64,000 nt of DNA, taken from positions 36,893-100,892 of the forward strand of contig CAZXEH010000001.1 in assembly GCA_964639885.1 (NCBI GenBank). Direction: 5' to 3'. This DNA comes from an uncultured Caldisericales bacterium. GTDB lineage: Bacteria; Caldisericota; Caldisericia; JAAYUI01. Positions 24,247 through 63,151 of the stretch are shown here, one piece after another (positions within the stretch are counted from its first letter, which is position 1; every line of letters begins with the position of its first letter). Position numbers and translations under genes: made by a program. Below the pieces are notes generated by a model that worked only from the letters and a program-made list of their open reading frames with translations, was not told the origin of the DNA and did no database searches.

Positions 24247-25941
24247 TTAAAGTTTGGATGCAAGACTGTTATCTATGCCTAATTTACAAACAATATCTTT
24301 TAAATATTTTTCAAGATGAATTTTATCATCATCAGAAAAATGCCAAGATTCGGTTTCTATTTCATCTATACGATTATAAACATTAAACTCATCCTTTTTT
24401 ACTAAACCAAAAATAGAGCAAAAATCACCATACAAAATGGAAACAGTTTCTTCGAATCGATTTTCAAGATAGTCTTTCAAAGATTTTATTTCTCGTAAGG
24501 TATCCGTATCACCTTTGTCGTCATCTAATGCGATGATGTAAGGAATTCCAAATTTATCTAATATTTTTGCATGATTCAATAATTTAGAATTCCCCCTTGA
24601 ATTATAGATACTGATATCATTACTATTTAGATTGTGACCTTGTTTCATCAATAACCAAGGTATGGCAATTCTTTCATTGTAGCCTTCGACTAATAATACT
24701 TTATCGGCAAAGAAAAATTCACGTAGTTCAGGTTCAAGCCTTAATGATGTAAAGAATTCGAAGAAATATTTATCAGAACCCAACACGTCAATTCCCTTTG
24801 ATTTTAGATAGTTTATTGAAAAATCGTATAACCCACTTCCATTATTGCTAACTTTTGTTAACCCGTTTATTTTTGATATGATTCTGAGTGAATGAATGTT
24901 CATAGGATCGATGAAATAAGATGAATGGGTGGAGAGGACTATTTTAAAATTTTTATTGCCCACGATCTCAAATAACTTATCTGAAACAGCTTTTTGTTGA
25001 TGTGGATGCATAAATATTTCTGGCTCTTCAATTAATAATATAAGATTGCTTTTGTTATCCTGTATCTTTTTTGAAGCCAATTGAGTAAATAACAACATTA
25101 TCAGCAATCTTTGTAAACCATGACCTAAATTTGTCCACTCTACAGATTCGATCCATTTATCACTTATTAATAATTGCCTGTCAGTAACCAGTTTTTTTGC
25201 ATCAAAATCAGTTGGAAGATACTCAATATTATTGATATCAGGTATAATTTTTTTCATTTCAGATTTAAGAGAGTTAATTATTTCCAAGGCATCTGTTTCT
25301 GGGATTTCTCGAATTTTCTTCAGCGCTTCGCAAATAATGACATTAATTTTTTCAGTATATGTTTTGCTGAATTTGTCATTTAAAAGTTTTCCGAGTATTG
25401 TTGTATTTGCAGTATTTGTTGCTTCTTTTAATATTGGAATTGCAGATAAATATAGAATATCAAATGGAGGTTTTTTATCGACCCAATCAAACTTACCATT
25501 AACTTCCGCTGTCGACTGGTAGATTTCTTTTTCACCTCCAGAATCAACCCAAATGTTTACCGTTGATCGTTTACTATTATTTCCAATATACTTACTAACA
25601 TCATTTTTAAGTGTTAATTTCTCTGATTCTCCTAAATTGGAAAAAGATTCTAATTCTAATAATTTTGCTTTGTAATCATCCTCTAATCTTTTATTGCATA
25701 TATCTGTTATTTCAAAAATACCTTTGTTAAATGCTTTATTTAGTGCAGTCATTATATTGCTTTTACCAGAATTATTTTTCCCTATCAATATCGTTTGATT
25801 ACTAAGGAATATTTCTAATTTATCTATTGTTCTAAAATTGTTTATTTCAATATGAATGTTATCCTCGGGATTGTCCATACAGCCTCCACAATGTTTATAA
25901 ACAAAATCCCCGAAGATTTCAATACCCTCGGGGATTGGCAA
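24247..25941 (-). CDS. OLD-family nuclease: N-terminal ABC-type ATPase + C-terminal TOPRIM domain (Gabija GajA / class-1 OLD-like)
   Basis: Walker A (ILIGKNNSGKSNIMTAL). Walker B/D-loop (LILLIEEPEIFMHPHQQ). C-terminal Toprim with a conserved Glu (LLVEGYNERIAIPWLL) and DxD (IIALDDDKGDTD). The gene is conspicuously AT-rich (about 25–30 %GC by eye) against GC-rich flanks. An alternative start is at the Met at 25878. Confidence 0.75.
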   Translation of the reverse strand: MPIPEGIEIFGDFVYKHCGGCMDNPEDNIHIEINNFRTIDKLEIFLSNQTILIGKNNSGKSNIMTALNKAFNKGIFEITDICNKRLEDDYKAKLLELESFSNLGESEKLTLKNDVSKYIGNNSKRSTVNIWVDSGGEKEIYQSTAEVNGKFDWVDKKPPFDILYLSAIPILKEATNTANTTILGKLLNDKFSKTYTEKINVIICEALKKIREIPETDALEIINSLKSEMKKIIPDINNIEYLPTDFDAKKLVTDRQLLISDKWIESVEWTNLGHGLQRLLIMLLFTQLASKKIQDNKSNLILLIEEPEIFMHPHQQKAVSDKLFEIVGNKNFKIVLSTHSSYFIDPMNIHSLRIISKINGLTKVSNNGSGLYDFSINYLKSKGIDVLGSDKYFFEFFTSLRLEPELREFFFADKVLLVEGYNERIAIPWLLMKQGHNLNSNDISIYNSRGNSKLLNHAKILDKFGIPYIIALDDDKGDTDTLREIKSLKDYLENRFEETVSILYGDFCSIFGLVKKDEFNVYNRIDEIETESWHFSDDDKIHLEKYLKDIVCKLGIDNSLASKL

Positions 25942-25979: not shown

Positions 25980-27230
25980 TCACAGCCCGTACTTCTCGAT
26001 GATCTGATCCTTGGTTTTGCCAAGAATGCCGTACTTTTGGCCGATTTTGGTGAAGGCGTTTATGGCCTTGTCGAGATGCTCCATCTCGTGGCCGGCTGAA
26101 ATCTGAACCCTGATGCGTGCAAGACCCTTGCCAACGACCGGATAGTAGAAGCCGATGACGTAGATGCCTTCGCTGTAGAGGTCTGCGGCGAAGTCCTGGG
26201 CGAGCTTTGCGTTGTAGAGCATGATTGGGACGATGGGATGGACGCCTGGCCTGATGTCGAATCCGGCTGATGTCATCTTTTCCCTGAAGTACTTTGTGTT
26301 TCTTTCCAGCTTGTCGCGGCGCTCGGTGGTGGTTGAGAGAAGGTCGATGACCTTGAGCGCTGCAGCGGCGACCACTGGCGGGATCGTGTTTGAGAACAGG
26401 TATGGGCGCGATCTCTGGCGAAGGAGGTCGATGATCTCTTTCCTGCCCGAGGTTGCTCCGCCTGAGGCTCCGCCAAGGGCTTTGCCAAGGGTGGTTGTGA
26501 TGACGTCGATTCTGCCCATCACGCCGTTGTGCTCATGGGTTCCGCGGCCGGTTTTGCCCATGAAGCCTGTTGCGTGGGAGTCGTCAACCATGGTCATGCA
26601 GTCGTACTTGTCGGCAATGTCGCAGATTTCCTTGAGTTTTGCGACGTCGCCATCCATGGAGAACACGCCGTCTGTTGCGATCATGATGAACCTTACGCCG
26701 TCAGCCCTGGCCTGCTTGCACTTTTCCTCGCAGTCGGCCATGTCGTTGTGCTTGTAGACATAGCGTTTTGCCTTTGAAAGCCTCATGCCGTCGATGATTG
26801 AGGCGTGGTTGAGCTCTTCGGTGACGATTGCGTCCTCTTCCTTGAGCAGCGTTTCAAAAAGTCCGCCGTTTGCGTCAAAGCACGAGGAGTAGAGGATTGT
26901 GTCTTCGGTGCCCAGGAACTCTGAAATCTTTTTTTCAAGCTGTTTGTGGATGTCCTGGGTTCCGCAGATGAAACGGACTGAGCTGAGGCCGTAGCCCCTG
27001 TAGTCCAGACCTTCGTGGGCTGCCTTGATGACGTCGGGGTGGGATGAGAGGCCAAGGTAGTTGTTGGCGCAGAAGTTGAGGGTTTCCTTGATCGGTGCGT
27101 CTTCAGGGAAGCGAACCTTGATGTCTGCCGCCTGTTCGGAAACGATCACCCTTTCATTCTTCCAAAGGCCGGCATCCTTGATTCCGGCAAGCTCTTTTGT
27201 GAGGAATTCTTTCACTTTGCTGTATGCCAT
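25980..27230 (-). CDS. kbl: glycine C-acetyltransferase (2-amino-3-ketobutyrate CoA ligase)
   Basis: PLP-dependent α-oxoamine synthase family; Lys-PLP region [13 protein letters not shown]. Adjacent to tdh. Confidence 0.9.
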
Positions 27231-41025: not shown

Positions 41026-42609
41026 ATGAGGACGGTTGGGATTTGGGCAATTCTGTTTTGCCTTCTGATTTCGGGTTCCGGTGTAGCAGGGGAGCTTTGC
41101 AATTGGCCAATGTTTCGGGGTGACAAGGCAAGGTCTGGCGTTTGCCAGTCCGAGTGCATGCCCAAAACCAACGATTTGTTGTGGACTTGTCAAACTCAGG
41201 GAGCCGTCGAGAGTTCGCCTGCAATTGTCGATGGAAAAGCCTACGTTGGTTCATTTGATGGCCATCTTTACTGCATTAATCTGGAAACAGGGAAACCTGA
41301 CTGGAAGTATCAGGCAACCGGTGGCGTGAAATCCTCTCCTTGTGTAGATGCTGAGAAGGTCTATTTCGGATCAACGAACCAAACAAACGGCAAGGGCGGT
41401 TTTTACTGTCTGAACACGAAAAGTGGGGACTTGATCTGGAAGCTGGATTTGCCATTAAAAGTTGACTCGTCGCCTCTGGTTGTTGGTGACAAAGTCGTTT
41501 TTGGCTGTGGTGATGACAACCTTTACGGCGCAAACAAAGAGAATGGCGATATTGTCTGGACTTGTCAGACGGAAGGTGCGATTGATTCAAGTCCTTCGTA
41601 TGATGGTGGCAGGATTTATGTTGGAAGCACCGATAACAATCTCTACTGTGTTGACGAAAATGATGGCTCAGTGCTCTGGAGCTTCAAAACTTTGGATGAC
41701 ATCGTTTCAACGCCTGCCATAATCAACGATTTGGTGTGTTTCGGGTCGATGGATAAAAGGGTTTATGCACTCGACAAGGTTTCAGGAAAGCTCAGATGGA
41801 AGTATGAAACCAAAGGATTTGTTGAATCCTCACCGGCGTTTGTCAACGGCAACATCGTGATTGGGTGTGACGACTACAGCCTTTATTGCCTGGATTCCGC
41901 CACTGGCAAACTCGAGTGGAGATTTTCGACCACAGAAGACAAGATAGTTTCATCCCCTACCGTTGTTGGTGATTATATACTTGTAGGAACCTGAGACTCT
42001 AACCTCTACTGCCTGGATGGCGGTACCGGCAAAATGCTTTGGAAGCACCACACAAACGGAGTGGTCAGGTCGTCGCCTGCTGTTGGCAATGGCAGGATTG
42101 TGTTTGGGTCGTACGATAATGTTGTTTATTGTTTAGGCGAGAAATCGATCGAAAATCCTACACCGCCCACGCCGGAACCGCCAAAACCCGAGCCTCCAAA
42201 ACCGCCGGAGAAAAAGACTATGAAGCTTGAATTCTGGCTGGATCGGAAAACATACACAGTTGACGGTGTGACCAAAGAGATGTCGGTCAAACCTTTTGTT
42301 TTCAAGGGTTCAACGATGCTGCCGGCAAGATATCTGGTCGAAGGCATTGGCGGAACCGCAACCTGGCTACAAGAGCAGAAAATGGTTGAGTGCAGGACTG
42401 ACAGGCATACGCTCAGGATGTGGGTTGGCAAAGGCACGGCTGAGCTTGATGGTGTTGAGGTAGCAATTGGCAAGGACGCTTCTGTCAATCCTCAGATTGT
42501 TGACGGTCGCGTGTTTGTTCCGTTCCGTTTCCTCGGCGAGTCGCTTGGATGTGTTGTCGAGTGGGATGCTGGTGAGAAAAGGATGAGTCTTGTTTATCAA
42601 TCGGAATAA
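41026..42609 (+). pseudogene. PQQ-repeat beta-propeller (BamB-like) + Pro-rich linker + copper-amine-oxidase-N-like stalk domain, interrupted by an in-frame TGA at 41992–41994
   Basis: Seven or more PQQ-type repeats (G.[FT]D..LYC[LIV][DN]..[TS]G...W). ORFs 41026..41994 and 42034..42609 are in the same frame. The TGA falls inside the repeat VGT*DSNLYCLD. PTPPTPEPPKPEPPKPP linker. C-terminal MLPARYLVEGIGG...VPFRFLGESLGCVVEWDAGEKRMSL module. Confidence 0.6.
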
Positions 42610-43661
42610 TTATACTTTTTTTTCATGAAATCATGAACTTCATATGAATATTCTAATTCTTTATAAACGTTATCTATATCTTGTTCTTTTAATTTGTCAA
42701 AACTTAAGTGGCTTAAGTATTCTGGCGCTGAATCAGACCCAAAAAGAGCTTTCCAGATATCTAATGTGTATTGGCATAAATCAAATAACAATTCCTCAGC
42801 AATTATTAGCCACTCATTGCTTTTCTTATAAAGGAAATCATTATTAGACGATATGTCAAAATGACTTATTTTATGTCTACTTTCAATATTTTTATCTAAT
42901 CGGTGATACTTTTGCTTAAAAATCGACCAATCCTTGTTAAAATTAGTTAAATCAAAATTATTAATGATTAGAAAACCTTTTTTGAAAATATCGTGACTAG
43001 ATTTATCGTTAGGATATAATTCTTTATATTTATTGATATGTTTATTAAATTCTTTTATGCTATTACTCATTTTCGCATTGATGTTTGTGTCATTAATCAT
43101 TGATTCTAGAAAACAATTTGTGAAGTTTAAAATGCTGAGAATTGACTGAATAGCATAATTTGCACAAAAGGTATTTGCGTTTGTTTTATAAAGTATTTCC
43201 TTTGTTGGCGAAGAAAAATTAGGCATTATATTTTCATAATACTGTCGATAATAAAAGGCTTTAAGGTATAACATTATTGAAAAGTGGAGAAAAATGTTTT
43301 CCTCATTTAATATACTTACATTACCCTTAAAAATTGATATATGCGACCTTTTTGGTAAATCTTTAGGTATATAGCGACAATTAATAACATCAACATAAAT
43401 TAATAATTCTGAAAGTTGAAATCCCTTTATCTGAGACGAAGTTTTTAATAAACTTGCTTTATCTTCTAAATAATATGCTAAATCATGAAGAGTTTTGTTT
43501 GGATTTATAGGCAAGAATTTTTTTGCTTTTTCTAGCAGTAACAAGTGTAAATCTTGAGGAAGACTTATTGACTTTTCTGAATAAATCCTGATTCTGTCTA
43601 GTTCATTATTTAATAAACAATAAAAAGAAATATAAATAAGCTCCTGCTGAAGTATATCCAT
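42597..43661 (-). CDS. hypothetical protein, AT-rich orphan (354 aa) with Rx4H (HEPN-like) motif
   Basis: Strong compositional contrast (about 25 %GC by eye). Lys/Asn/Ile-rich. The motif ESRHKISHFD contains R-x4-H. No secretion signal. Confidence 0.45.
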   Translation of the reverse strand: MDILQQELIYISFYCLLNNELDRIRIYSEKSISLPQDLHLLLLEKAKKFLPINPNKTLHDLAYYLEDKASLLKTSSQIKGFQLSELLIYVDVINCRYIPKDLPKRSHISIFKGNVSILNEENIFLHFSIMLYLKAFYYRQYYENIMPNFSSPTKEILYKTNANTFCANYAIQSILSILNFTNCFLESMINDTNINAKMSNSIKEFNKHINKYKELYPNDKSSHDIFKKGFLIINNFDLTNFNKDWSIFKQKYHRLDKNIESRHKISHFDISSNNDFLYKKSNEWLIIAEELLFDLCQYTLDIWKALFGSDSAPEYLSHLSFDKLKEQDIDNVYKELEYSYEVHDFMKKKYNYSD

Positions 43662-43707
43662 AGTTTCATTCTATATTTCTGTTTAAAAATGTAAATATAA
43701 CCCCCTC

Positions 43708-43737
43708 GATGTATGTTGCGAGGGGGTTATAAACGAA
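43708..43737 (-). terminator. Rho-independent terminator downstream of hbd
   Basis: AACCCCCTCG-atgtatgttg-CGAGGGGGTT, a 10-bp stem, followed on the − strand by a T-rich tract. Confidence 0.55.
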
Positions 43738-43770
43738 TGAAAATTGTTACCAAGCTTTAGCCGGTTTGGG

Positions 43771-44631
43771 CTATTTTGCTTCCCTATAATCGTAGAACCC
43801 GACACCGTTCTTCCTGCCAAGCAGTCCTGCAGCCACCATCTTGCGAAGGAGAGGGCACGGTCTGTACTTGGAATCGCCGAGGCCTTCATGGAGCACTTCC
43901 ATGATGGCAAGGCAGGTGTCAAGTCCGATCAGGTCGGCGAGGGCGAGTGGGCCCATCGGGTGGTTCATGCCAAGCTTCATGACTGTGTCAATGTTTTCCT
44001 TGGTCGCAACACCTTCCATGAGGCAATAAACGGCTTCGTTGATCATCGGCATGAGGATTCGGTTGCTGACAAAACCCGGGAAATCGTTTGCAACTGCCGG
44101 CGTCTTTCCGAGTTTTTTCGAAAGATCGTCGATGATTGTGTAAACTTCGTCGGTTGTCAGCATTCCACGGATGATTTCGACAAGCTGCATCAATGGAACC
44201 GGGTTCATGAAGTGCATTCCGATGAAGCGTTCCGGTTTTTTGTACTTTGCCGCAAGCTCAGTGATCGAGATGGTTGAGGTGTTTGAGGCGAGAATGGCTG
44301 TTTCGGCCAGTATTCCGTTGAGCTTTTCGTAGATTGCGTACTTGAGCTGCCTGTTCTCGGAAACGGCTTCAATGACCAGTTCACAGCCGGCAAGGTCGGA
44401 AAGGCTCTCTGAAATCTTGATGTTTCCAAGGGTCGAGTCGACTTCAGCCTGGGTGATCTTTTCCTTTGAAAGCAGCCTTTCAAGGTTCTTTTTGATGATG
44501 CCTTTTGCTTTTTCTGCCAACGTCAGGTTTGCTTCACAAATTGTCACATCATAACCCTTGTTTGCAAAAACGTGGGCGATTCCGTTGCCCATGACTCCGC
44601 CGCCGATGACTCCAACTTTCTTAATCTCCAT
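43771..44631 (-). CDS. hbd: 3-hydroxybutyryl-CoA dehydrogenase
   Basis: 3HCDH N-terminal GxGxxG ([14 protein letters not shown]) and C-terminal domain. 286 aa. Confidence 0.9.
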
Positions 44632-62057: not shown

Positions 62058-62603
62058 CTAGCGTCCCGTGTCAACCATCCGGTAAAGCTTCAGCTTGCTG
62101 TTCTCGGTTTTATAGAAGTTGAACGTCCAGCCGACTTGTTCTGTGTAGATTTCGTAGACGAAAAGAAATTTTTGTTTTGTCTCGTTCACTTTTGCCTGGT
62201 CGAACATTGGGAGACCGTAGGCGAGCTGAGCATGGGTGATGATGAACTGGTCAGTGGTCTGGGTGCCAAACGAAGGGATGACGCTGATCATGTCAAACTT
62301 TGGGAACTGGGCTCCCGACTTTGTTTTCCATATCTCAGCCTCGCAAACAAGGAAACCGCCATCTTTGCTGTAGATGTTTTCAAACGGGCTGTCCTTGTCA
62401 ACGTTTGGGATGGTGAAGACTATATCAGATTTGTCGAGTTTGAAGAAAACTCCGTCCGAAATGCTTATTTCTTCGCTTGTCTGAGCCAGCTGGAAATCCG
62501 GTGTGCGCTCGAGGTTCAGCAAAAACTCGTTTTGAACCGGACCTTGGGTTGGCCCGCAACCTGCAAGCAGGACAAGACCTATGACTATGGCAATCTTTCT
62601 CAT
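62058..62603 (-). CDS. hypothetical lipoprotein
   Basis: Lipobox (LLAGCGP). 181 aa. Confidence 0.45.
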   Translation of the reverse strand: MRKIAIVIGLVLLAGCGPTQGPVQNEFLLNLERTPDFQLAQTSEEISISDGVFFKLDKSDIVFTIPNVDKDSPFENIYSKDGGFLVCEAEIWKTKSGAQFPKFDMISVIPSFGTQTTDQFIITHAQLAYGLPMFDQAKVNETKQKFLFVYEIYTEQVGWTFNFYKTENSKLKLYRMVDTGR

Positions 62604-63151
62604 ATTCCCATATCGATGAGGGCAAGCCTTTTTTCGGGGGTTGCCGTTTTGTCGAGGATTTCAATCGAAAGACCCTGGGTTTTCTTTAGCCCTTCAAAAA
62701 TGATTGTGACCTTGTAGCCAAGTGATGACATTGCCGGGATCATTTTAACCGGTATTCTGCCCGTGAAATTTGAATAGAGACTCTCGTTCTCAGTTGGCAG
62801 GAACCTGTTTCCAAACACATCGACCATCTCAAACCTGACGTTTTCAAGGTTCATCGGGGCTGTGGCGTCGATGTCGACATCGACAACATGGAACATTTCC
62901 TTCGTAGGAGCGGTTTCGCCAATCTTTTCCATCGCCCTGTAGTTTGAAAATGTCCATGTGGCATCGAACAGCTTGAACGATTTGCCGATCCAGATCGGGT
63001 TTGCAAGGTCGGTTATCACGTCGCTGGCAGGTTCCCTGTTGCCGTTTGGTGGCTGGTCAGTCTTTGGCAGGTCTGTTGCTGCCTGTCCGCATGAAGCCAG
63101 GAATACGATCAGGGTGGCTGCTGCACAGATGGTTTTAAGGATTTTTGCCAT
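62600..63151 (-). CDS. hypothetical lipoprotein (DUF4352-like)
   Basis: Lipobox (FLASCG). β-rich immunoglobulin-like profile. Confidence 0.4.
   Translation of the reverse strand: MAKILKTICAAATLIVFLASCGQAATDLPKTDQPPNGNREPASDVITDLANPIWIGKSFKLFDATWTFSNYRAMEKIGETAPTKEMFHVVDVDIDATAPMNLENVRFEMVDVFGNRFLPTENESLYSNFTGRIPVKMIPAMSSLGYKVTIIFEGLKKTQGLSIEILDKTATPEKRLALIDMGI

Follow-up and report, generated by a model that had tools for sequence, protein, structure and literature searches.

An AT-rich single-gene islet of a Caldisericales bacterium encodes a member of a very rare protein family with a predicted HEPN-like domain

HEPN domains carry the signature Rx4-6H, in which a polar Asn, Asp, or His directly follows the Arg (PMC3710099). 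AbiV, AbiJ, and AbiU2 are abortive-infection (Abi) modules that consist of one gene, or of a gene plus an RNA, and that contain a HEPN ribonuclease (RNase); the N-terminal domains of AbiJ are variable (PMC3710099 among other sources). The AbiD/F proteins are Cas13-like and rely on an RNA antitoxin, the abiF motif, located upstream of the gene. The bacterial RiboL-PSP-HEPN family is distantly related to AbiD and AbiF (PMC3710099; Anantharaman et al. 2013). Here we analyzed a 64,000-nt stretch of DNA from an uncultured Caldisericales bacterium (GenBank assembly GCA_964639885.1, contig CAZXEH010000001.1, positions 36,893 to 100,892), referred to below as the window. The minus strand of the window contains an orphan gene (42597..43661) that starts with ATG and stops at a TGA followed by an in-frame TAA. 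Its 354-residue product belongs to a protein family that is very rare and hitherto undescribed. We propose with moderate confidence that the gene is a stand-alone toxin or abortive-infection module representing a new, very rare family of the HEPN superfamily. Our confidence is higher for the assignment of the product as a HEPN-like RNase and lower for an anti-phage role.

When 1.84 billion representative proteins were searched exhaustively with phmmer, five relatives of the window protein were recovered. P0002 is likewise 354 residues long and is 42% identical to it, P0003 is 31% identical, P0004 is a fragment, and P0005 is the most distant match (26% identity, E 1e-6). P0001 is a 150-residue sequence of 97% identity that is the remnant of an allele disrupted by an insertion sequence (IS)-like element (discussed below), and this fragment represents the 90% cluster to which the window protein belongs. 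A word-index homologue search gave no match for the window protein, though its exact sequence is in the collection. P0005 lies in a sister clade with 13 further relatives and 41 loci in JGI metagenome contigs. The window clade and the sister clade are homologous as judged by hhalign (probability 98.4%, E 4e-15, 270 columns). Scans of GTDB species genomes, IMG/VR, and JGI metagenomes revealed no relatives of the window clade, and the sister clade was absent from IMG/VR. Searches of plasmid and phage collections by tblastn with the window protein and P0005 gave no match, and no family member was found on viral contigs, phages, or plasmids. The family amounts to roughly 60 sequences among ~15 billion proteins. 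At E ≤ 10, no profile of Pfam, NCBIfam, PADLOC, or PHROGs matched the window protein, and an NCBIfam scan of 18 family members gave nothing meaningful.

Residue conservation was counted in an alignment of 42 distinct members that are 13-42% identical to the window protein. Among the positions checked, G80, P103, E120, F184, R262, H267, W284, and P313 are invariant (42 of 42), and W303, Y315, and L316 are shared by 41 of the 42. R262 and H267 delimit the predicted HEPN catalytic motif R[D/N/H]xxxH (RHKISH in the window protein; 42861..42878, minus strand). This motif is the sole R-x(4-6)-H in the window protein and lies within the stretch ESRHKISHFD (residues 260-269), which a preliminary description of the window had already singled out as HEPN-like. 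Position 263 is Asp in 37 members, Asn in three, and His in two, with no other residue found, and so the HEPN signature, including the polar residue after the Arg, is present in every member. We estimate that R-x4-H occurs by chance ~0.2 times in one 354-residue protein. A single occurrence is, therefore, not significant alone, and the weight comes from invariance across the family. Judged by this conservation, the R-x4-H motif of the family is meaningful, in keeping with the earlier suggestion.

An AlphaFold model based on the family alignment (predicted local distance difference test score (pLDDT) 77.7; predicted template modeling score (pTM) 0.70) is all helical except for one β-hairpin. 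The model obtained from the single sequence was poor (pLDDT 46). The N-terminal domain (residues 1-147; 43221..43661, minus strand) consists of helices and the β-hairpin (residues 107-118), matches no known family, and contains the near-invariant residues D91, D101, and E121. The E120-E121 pair is encoded by GAGGAA (43299..43304, minus strand), and position 121 is Glu in 40 members and Asp in two. The C-terminal HEPN-like helical domain (residues 148-312; 42726..43220, minus strand) has proposed helices at residues 152-189, 192-215, and 241-264, followed by a loop and a further helix at 281-307. In the model R262 is in the last turn of a helix spanning residues 253-264, and H267 opens a low-confidence loop ahead of the long helix 281-307. 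HEPN domains likewise bear their motif at the end of a helix (PMC3710099). P0005 matched the Pfam family HEPN_RiboL-PSP (PF18735) with an E value of 3.2e-5 and 24.4 bits, the best score in the family. The same profile was the top Pfam match for 8 of 14 sister-clade proteins (E 3.2e-5 to 1), and it was also matched by the family consensus, all in the same register. The matches cover profile positions 9-67, which correspond via hhalign to residues ~152-204 of the window protein. We consider it probable that residues ~148-312 form a HEPN-superfamily domain.

A number of observations weigh against a HEPN-type defense protein. All matches to HEPN_RiboL-PSP fall below the Pfam gathering score of 28.4 bits, and no stretch aligned to this profile extends as far as the R-x4-H motif. 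At E ≤ 10, neither the window protein nor either of its two closest homologues matched a HEPN profile, or any other, in the profile libraries. Of the HEPN profile similarity anticipated in the preliminary description, the sub-threshold resemblance of the sister clade was found, and a match of the window protein itself was not. Foldseek searches of the PDB gave nothing significant (best E 0.69), with the HEPN toxins 7bxo and 7ae6 among the weak matches (E about 3, target TM-score 0.33-0.43). A fold search of BFVD returned nothing, and three sequence-profile searches of the PDB, with the full family, the small family, and the C-terminal domain, gave chance matches only (STING, trehalose phosphatase, dCK, and SorC). 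An acidic Ex3[KR] element, which many HEPN domains have, is not evident. No model of PADLOC-DB v2.0.0, one of the checks named in the preliminary description, matches the window protein at E ≤ 10. Many family members lie among ordinary metabolic genes, and the orphan gene itself is outside any defense island, with an OLD-family gene 17 kb away.

RiboL-PSP-HEPN is the sole known family that any member matches, and both families have a conserved Rx4H in one HEPN domain, which for the orphan family is predicted. The two differ in that the window clade is without a match and even the best score in the family is sub-threshold. Furthermore, RiboL-PSP-HEPN has an L-PSP endoribonuclease fusion and a ParB operon, whereas the orphan family has neither and carries a new N-terminal domain of ~147 residues. 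AbiD, AbiD1, and AbiF (Abi_2, PF07751; lactococcal and clostridial) are similar to the orphan gene and its product in their size of ~350 residues, in being encoded by an AT-rich stand-alone gene, in being predicted HEPN RNase toxins, and in their patchy, mobile distribution. The preliminary description had noted a resemblance to this family, which does not extend to membership. The Abi_2 profile matched none of 18 members (window protein, P0002, P0003, and P0005 at E ≤ 10; the rest at E ≤ 1), no abiF RNA was found in 42000-44000, and the orphan protein has one R-x4-H rather than a Cas13-like pair. Judged by these sequence criteria, the orphan does not belong to AbiD/F.

The resemblance to the toxins of HEPN-MNT type II/VII systems (PDB 7AE6 and 7BXO) consists of the weak, non-significant Foldseek matches given above. 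These toxins are ~130-150 residues long and always accompanied by the gene for a minimal nucleotidyltransferase (MNT) antitoxin, whereas the orphan protein has 354 residues and its gene has hbd and a PQQ gene as neighbors. No MNT-type family was present among 25 listed of the 59 Pfam families matched by 106 open reading frames (ORFs) neighboring family members. AbiV, AbiJ, and AbiU2 would be similar to the orphan product as single-HEPN Abi proteins. The HEPN_AbiV, AbiJ, and AbiU2 models did not match the family (the same four members at E ≤ 10, the rest at E ≤ 1), and none of the AbiJ N-terminal domains in Pfam is related to that of the orphan protein. PADLOC analysis of the sister clade gave isolated, one-off weak matches only (BrxA, Cas13b, and Csm2).

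The orphan is a real gene. Stop codons make up, by our estimate, ~8.6% of random triplets at 26% GC, which gives a chance probability of ~1e-14 for an open frame of 354 codons, and full-length homologues of the same length exist. The exact window protein was also called in JGI 3300022666 and in four Logan assemblies, and it is intact and identical in five independent samples. The window itself corresponds to JGI metagenome contig Ga0248168_1000348, with 100% identity over the 13 kb compared. The GC content of the gene is 26.2% (32/23/23% by codon position), close to the ~25% estimated by eye in the preliminary description; the window as a whole has 47.3% GC, and the genes on either side of the orphan have 47-54%. 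The product is rich in Lys, Asn, and Ile, as previously stated, with residue counts of Leu 44, Ile 36, Lys 36, Ser 33, and Asn 32. Its N terminus lacks a basic n-region by sequence and is helical by prediction. The orphan gene is a compositionally foreign single-gene islet that was horizontally acquired.

Two AT-rich dips are seen in the 1-kb composition profile of the window, one at the orphan gene and a second at 24-26 kb. The second islet (24247-25941, minus strand; ~30-38% GC in the 1-kb profile) encodes a 564-residue OLD-family protein with an AAA_15 ATPase, an OLD-like TOPRIM domain, and an apparent TTG start. Because the gene beside it (25980-27230) is mostly in a stretch of 55% GC, the OLD gene also looks like a single-gene islet. 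Both foreign single-gene islets reported in the preliminary description are, thus, real.

On the minus strand the gene order is thiolase (thl), hbd, terminator hairpin, promoter-like site, and orphan gene. The intrinsic terminator of hbd (43696..43731, minus strand) has a 13-bp perfect stem, a 10-nt loop, and a T-rich tail, with a fold z-score of -5.7. It forms the upstream edge of the AT-rich islet, and the orphan gene starts 35 nt downstream of the hairpin. The spacer upstream of the orphan gene is 109 nt long and is mostly occupied by the hbd terminator and the promoter-like site TTTACA-16 nt-TAGAAT (43668..43695, minus strand), with 6 nt separating the end of its -10 box from the ATG. There is no Shine-Dalgarno sequence upstream of the orphan ATG; AAGGAG is present at the native genes hbd, thl, and the surface-protein gene. 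The gene for the closest homologue, P0002, similarly has a TATAAT 6 nt before its ATG. The proximity of the -10 box to the ATG and the lack of a Shine-Dalgarno sequence make a leaderless orphan mRNA plausible. The upstream regions of the window gene and of P0002 both hold ATCGAGGG..TT, which was considered as a sign of a common insertion site and judged too short.

The preliminary description had placed the start of the orphan gene directly after the stop of the PQQ gene and its end before the hbd terminator, implying a plus-strand gene. The gene is in fact on the minus strand, and its 3' end overlaps the stop region of a convergent PQQ/Cu_amine_oxidN1 ORF (42034..42609, plus strand) by 13 nt (42597..42609), with no terminator detected between them. 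When 42000-44000 was scanned against Rfam at E ≤ 1, no family matched, the abiF motif included, and no tandem repeats were found within the same interval. The surroundings of the orphan islet were inspected for scars of insertion and for direct repeats on its flanks, and nothing convincing was seen. The overlapping ORF is the second of two "PQQ" ORFs (322 and 191 residues; 41026-42609, plus strand) that constitute one PQQ β-propeller and Cu_amine_oxidN1 gene split by an in-frame TGA at 41992-41994 (..ILVGT, stop, DSNLYCLDGGTGKMLWK..). The same TGA is found in a second strain (contig L006), and the split gene is either a pseudogene or has a read-through or recoding site.

The window thiolase is 71% identical to those of Caldisericales and Caldisericia metagenome-assembled genomes, and nothing closer was found among 185,579 species genomes; the host, therefore, comes from a lineage of the Caldisericota that is poorly represented. 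In its nearest relative (L016, 10001-16840 of Caldisericales contig JAKIZT010000011.1), ccm-thl-hbd is followed by a terminator and then directly by a convergent surface-protein gene, whose 1562-residue product is 43% identical to the 1539-residue protein of the window. Neither the PQQ gene nor the orphan gene is present at this locus. It follows that the PQQ gene, which has native GC, is also lineage-specific at the site.

Other strains are represented by contigs. L006 shows 69 differences from the window, none of them beyond 41913; its first PQQ ORF is 7.4% divergent, and the sequences are identical from 41914 through the orphan gene. In L003 the thiolase gene is 3.8% divergent, and hbd has one difference. 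Mapping the mismatches of L006, L102, and L003 relative to the window delimits a 2.7-kb block (41914..44622) that comprises the tail of the first PQQ ORF, the second PQQ ORF, the orphan gene, and hbd. This block is centered on the orphan gene and is identical across strains amid flanks that are 4-7% divergent, a pattern that fits recent spread by homologous recombination. Such spread, or a gene-specific sweep, is possible, with the caveat of assembly chimerism. In the strain of runs SRR31913526 and SRR31913527, a segment of the minus strand (43025..43687) has been exchanged. The window sequence ends at 43687 in L003 and picks up at 43024 in L102, with foreign DNA at L003 1804-1878 (SRR31913527) and L102 1-76 (SRR31913526). 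The ends of the foreign DNA at the two junctions are inverted repeats (19/23; CGGCATTRTGYAYYTGACAAACC), indicating that an IS-like element replaced the promoter and codons 1-212. The window itself lacks this element.

In hosts that range from 33 to 70% GC, most genes of the family have a lower GC content than the DNA around them. No conserved partner gene was found, an all-against-all comparison of the 106 neighboring ORFs having recovered near-duplicate loci only. The relatives also show no conserved housekeeping context; the presence of such a context had been named in the preliminary description as something that would speak against its proposal. The gene for P0003 (within L012 6565-12159) is a lone 30%-GC gene on a 45%-GC contig and adjoins a Cu_amine_oxidN1 gene, in tandem rather than convergently. 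Farther downstream, two genes of unknown function (188 and 181 residues) have 25-26% identical counterparts at 62064-62989 of the window. These likenesses to the window may reflect coincidence, a shared lineage, or a preferred context for insertion. P0011 is encoded alone between GH43 and aldehyde dehydrogenase genes.

Other relatives have neighbors of a different kind. The P0005 gene (within L009 7574-13989, on JGI Ga0401259_00010; also in GCA_002058965.1, MWWH01000748.1) is directly behind two DNA methyltransferase genes (N6_Mtase/Eco57I/TaqI_C and N6_N4_Mtase), in a block of 34-40% GC that also holds several unknown genes, on a contig that bears ParA, LexA-like, helix-turn-helix, and PDDEXK genes. 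No restriction enzyme was recognized in this block, which is probably a defense block of a plasmid or integrative element. An adjacent DNA methyltransferase is found at this locus and about three others only, and at neither the window nor most other loci. P0018 is encoded directly downstream of a 999-residue fusion of Peptidase_C14 (caspase-like) and DEAD/Helicase_C (L101, 201-3200), an unusual architecture that looks defense-related. P0007 and P0012 are near MqsA, DUF4160, and nSTAND genes. The pooled neighbor domains include N6_N4_Mtase, N6_Mtase/HsdM_N, PIN, HNH_3, McrBC, Fic_N, and SWI2_SNF2, and housekeeping enzymes occur among them. Taken together, the contexts are those of a mobile module of one gene, loosely associated with defense and toxin-antitoxin genes. 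The family is neither a housekeeping family nor a strict resident of defense islands.

Alternative explanations must be considered. We regard it as unlikely that the protein is not a HEPN RNase and is instead a new helical protein, such as a regulator, a scaffold, or another enzyme, in which the conserved Arg and His together with G80, D91, P103, and E120/E121 serve another site. Such a protein would be consistent with the lack of a significant structural match to any HEPN structure, with the lack of a profile match in the window clade, with sister-clade matches that are sub-threshold and exclude the motif, and with the several invariant residues outside the proposed HEPN domain. It would leave unexplained the exact HEPN grammar R[D/N/H]xxxH, invariant at 13-42% identity, the position of the motif at a helix end with a loop after it, and the recurrence of the same HEPN family as top Pfam match in 8 of 14 members in a consistent register. 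Less probable still in our estimation is an addiction (toxin-antitoxin-like) toxin that stabilizes mobile DNA rather than acting against phages, with an antitoxin that might be a small RNA, an antisense RNA transcribed from the convergent PQQ gene, or the N-terminal domain of the protein itself. Toxin-antitoxin systems commonly contain HEPN toxins (PMC3710099); AbiD/F, AbiV, and AbiQ are now viewed as pairs of a protein and an RNA antitoxin; toxin-antitoxin genes adjoin some relatives; and the 13-nt convergent overlap, with no terminator detected, would allow antisense transcription. Against an addiction toxin stand the absence of any Rfam family and of tandem repeats from 42000-44000, an upstream region of just 109 nt that is mostly hbd terminator, the lack of a conserved neighboring gene, and the chromosomal location of the window gene with no obvious mobile element.

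The location of the P0005 gene behind two DNA methyltransferase genes is that of a restriction gene, and the family-conserved acidic residues flank the sole β-hairpin. These features would be compatible with a restriction-endonuclease-like DNA nuclease in which D91, D101, and E120/E121 near the hairpin are catalytic. We consider this highly improbable and have rejected the restriction-enzyme explanation because methyltransferases are missing at most loci, the window included; a restriction enzyme on its own would kill the cell, the fold is helical nearly throughout and lacks the mixed sheet of PD-(D/E)xK enzymes, and no nuclease profile matches. A spurious ORF, or a decaying remnant without function, is scarcely credible. 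No source provides an annotation or name for the gene, and an IS-like element disrupts it in one strain, but the improbability of so long an open frame at this GC content, the full-length homologues (42 and 31% identical) in which length and motifs are conserved, and the intact, identical sequence in the five samples effectively refute it.

The explanation that we favor is a HEPN-type toxin or abortive-infection effector. The gene would be a horizontally acquired stand-alone module, apparently with its own promoter and probably with a leaderless mRNA, and its product would be a cytoplasmic, two-domain protein. The C-terminal ~165 residues are predicted to form a divergent HEPN-type helical domain in which R262 and H267 make up a metal-independent endoribonuclease site. 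Minimal HEPN toxins have a single HEPN domain and must dimerize to form the RNase site. Since there is one motif per chain in the orphan protein, we propose that its site is probably likewise completed by dimerization. The new N-terminal domain of ~147 residues, with its invariant acidic residues, may sense a trigger or restrain the nuclease. Once triggered, the protein would most likely cleave cellular or phage RNA. The HEPN fold, RNase activity, dimerization, trigger, anti-phage role, and leaderless expression are all features that we infer. More tentatively, and with confidence that stops short of an even balance, we suggest that the orphan gene is the first example of a family of single-gene toxin or abortive-infection modules, in which a one-motif HEPN RNase is joined to a new N-terminal domain with invariant acidic residues, and that it needs no antitoxin of protein or RNA, is transcribed as a leaderless mRNA, and spreads among Caldisericota strains by homologous recombination of its flanks.

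HEPN RNases in small AT-rich islets are a well known theme, and in this respect the orphan gene is no conceptual surprise. To our knowledge, phage defense in the Caldisericota has hardly been studied. If the prediction holds, the family would be a new and extremely rare branch of the HEPN toxin superfamily, with a new N-terminal domain and no antitoxin partner, and one that current defense-finding tools (PADLOC and Pfam) miss entirely. Environmental populations contain the intact gene side by side with an allele disrupted by the IS-like element and a possible recombination tract, which constitutes a natural experiment on the cost and benefit of carrying the gene.

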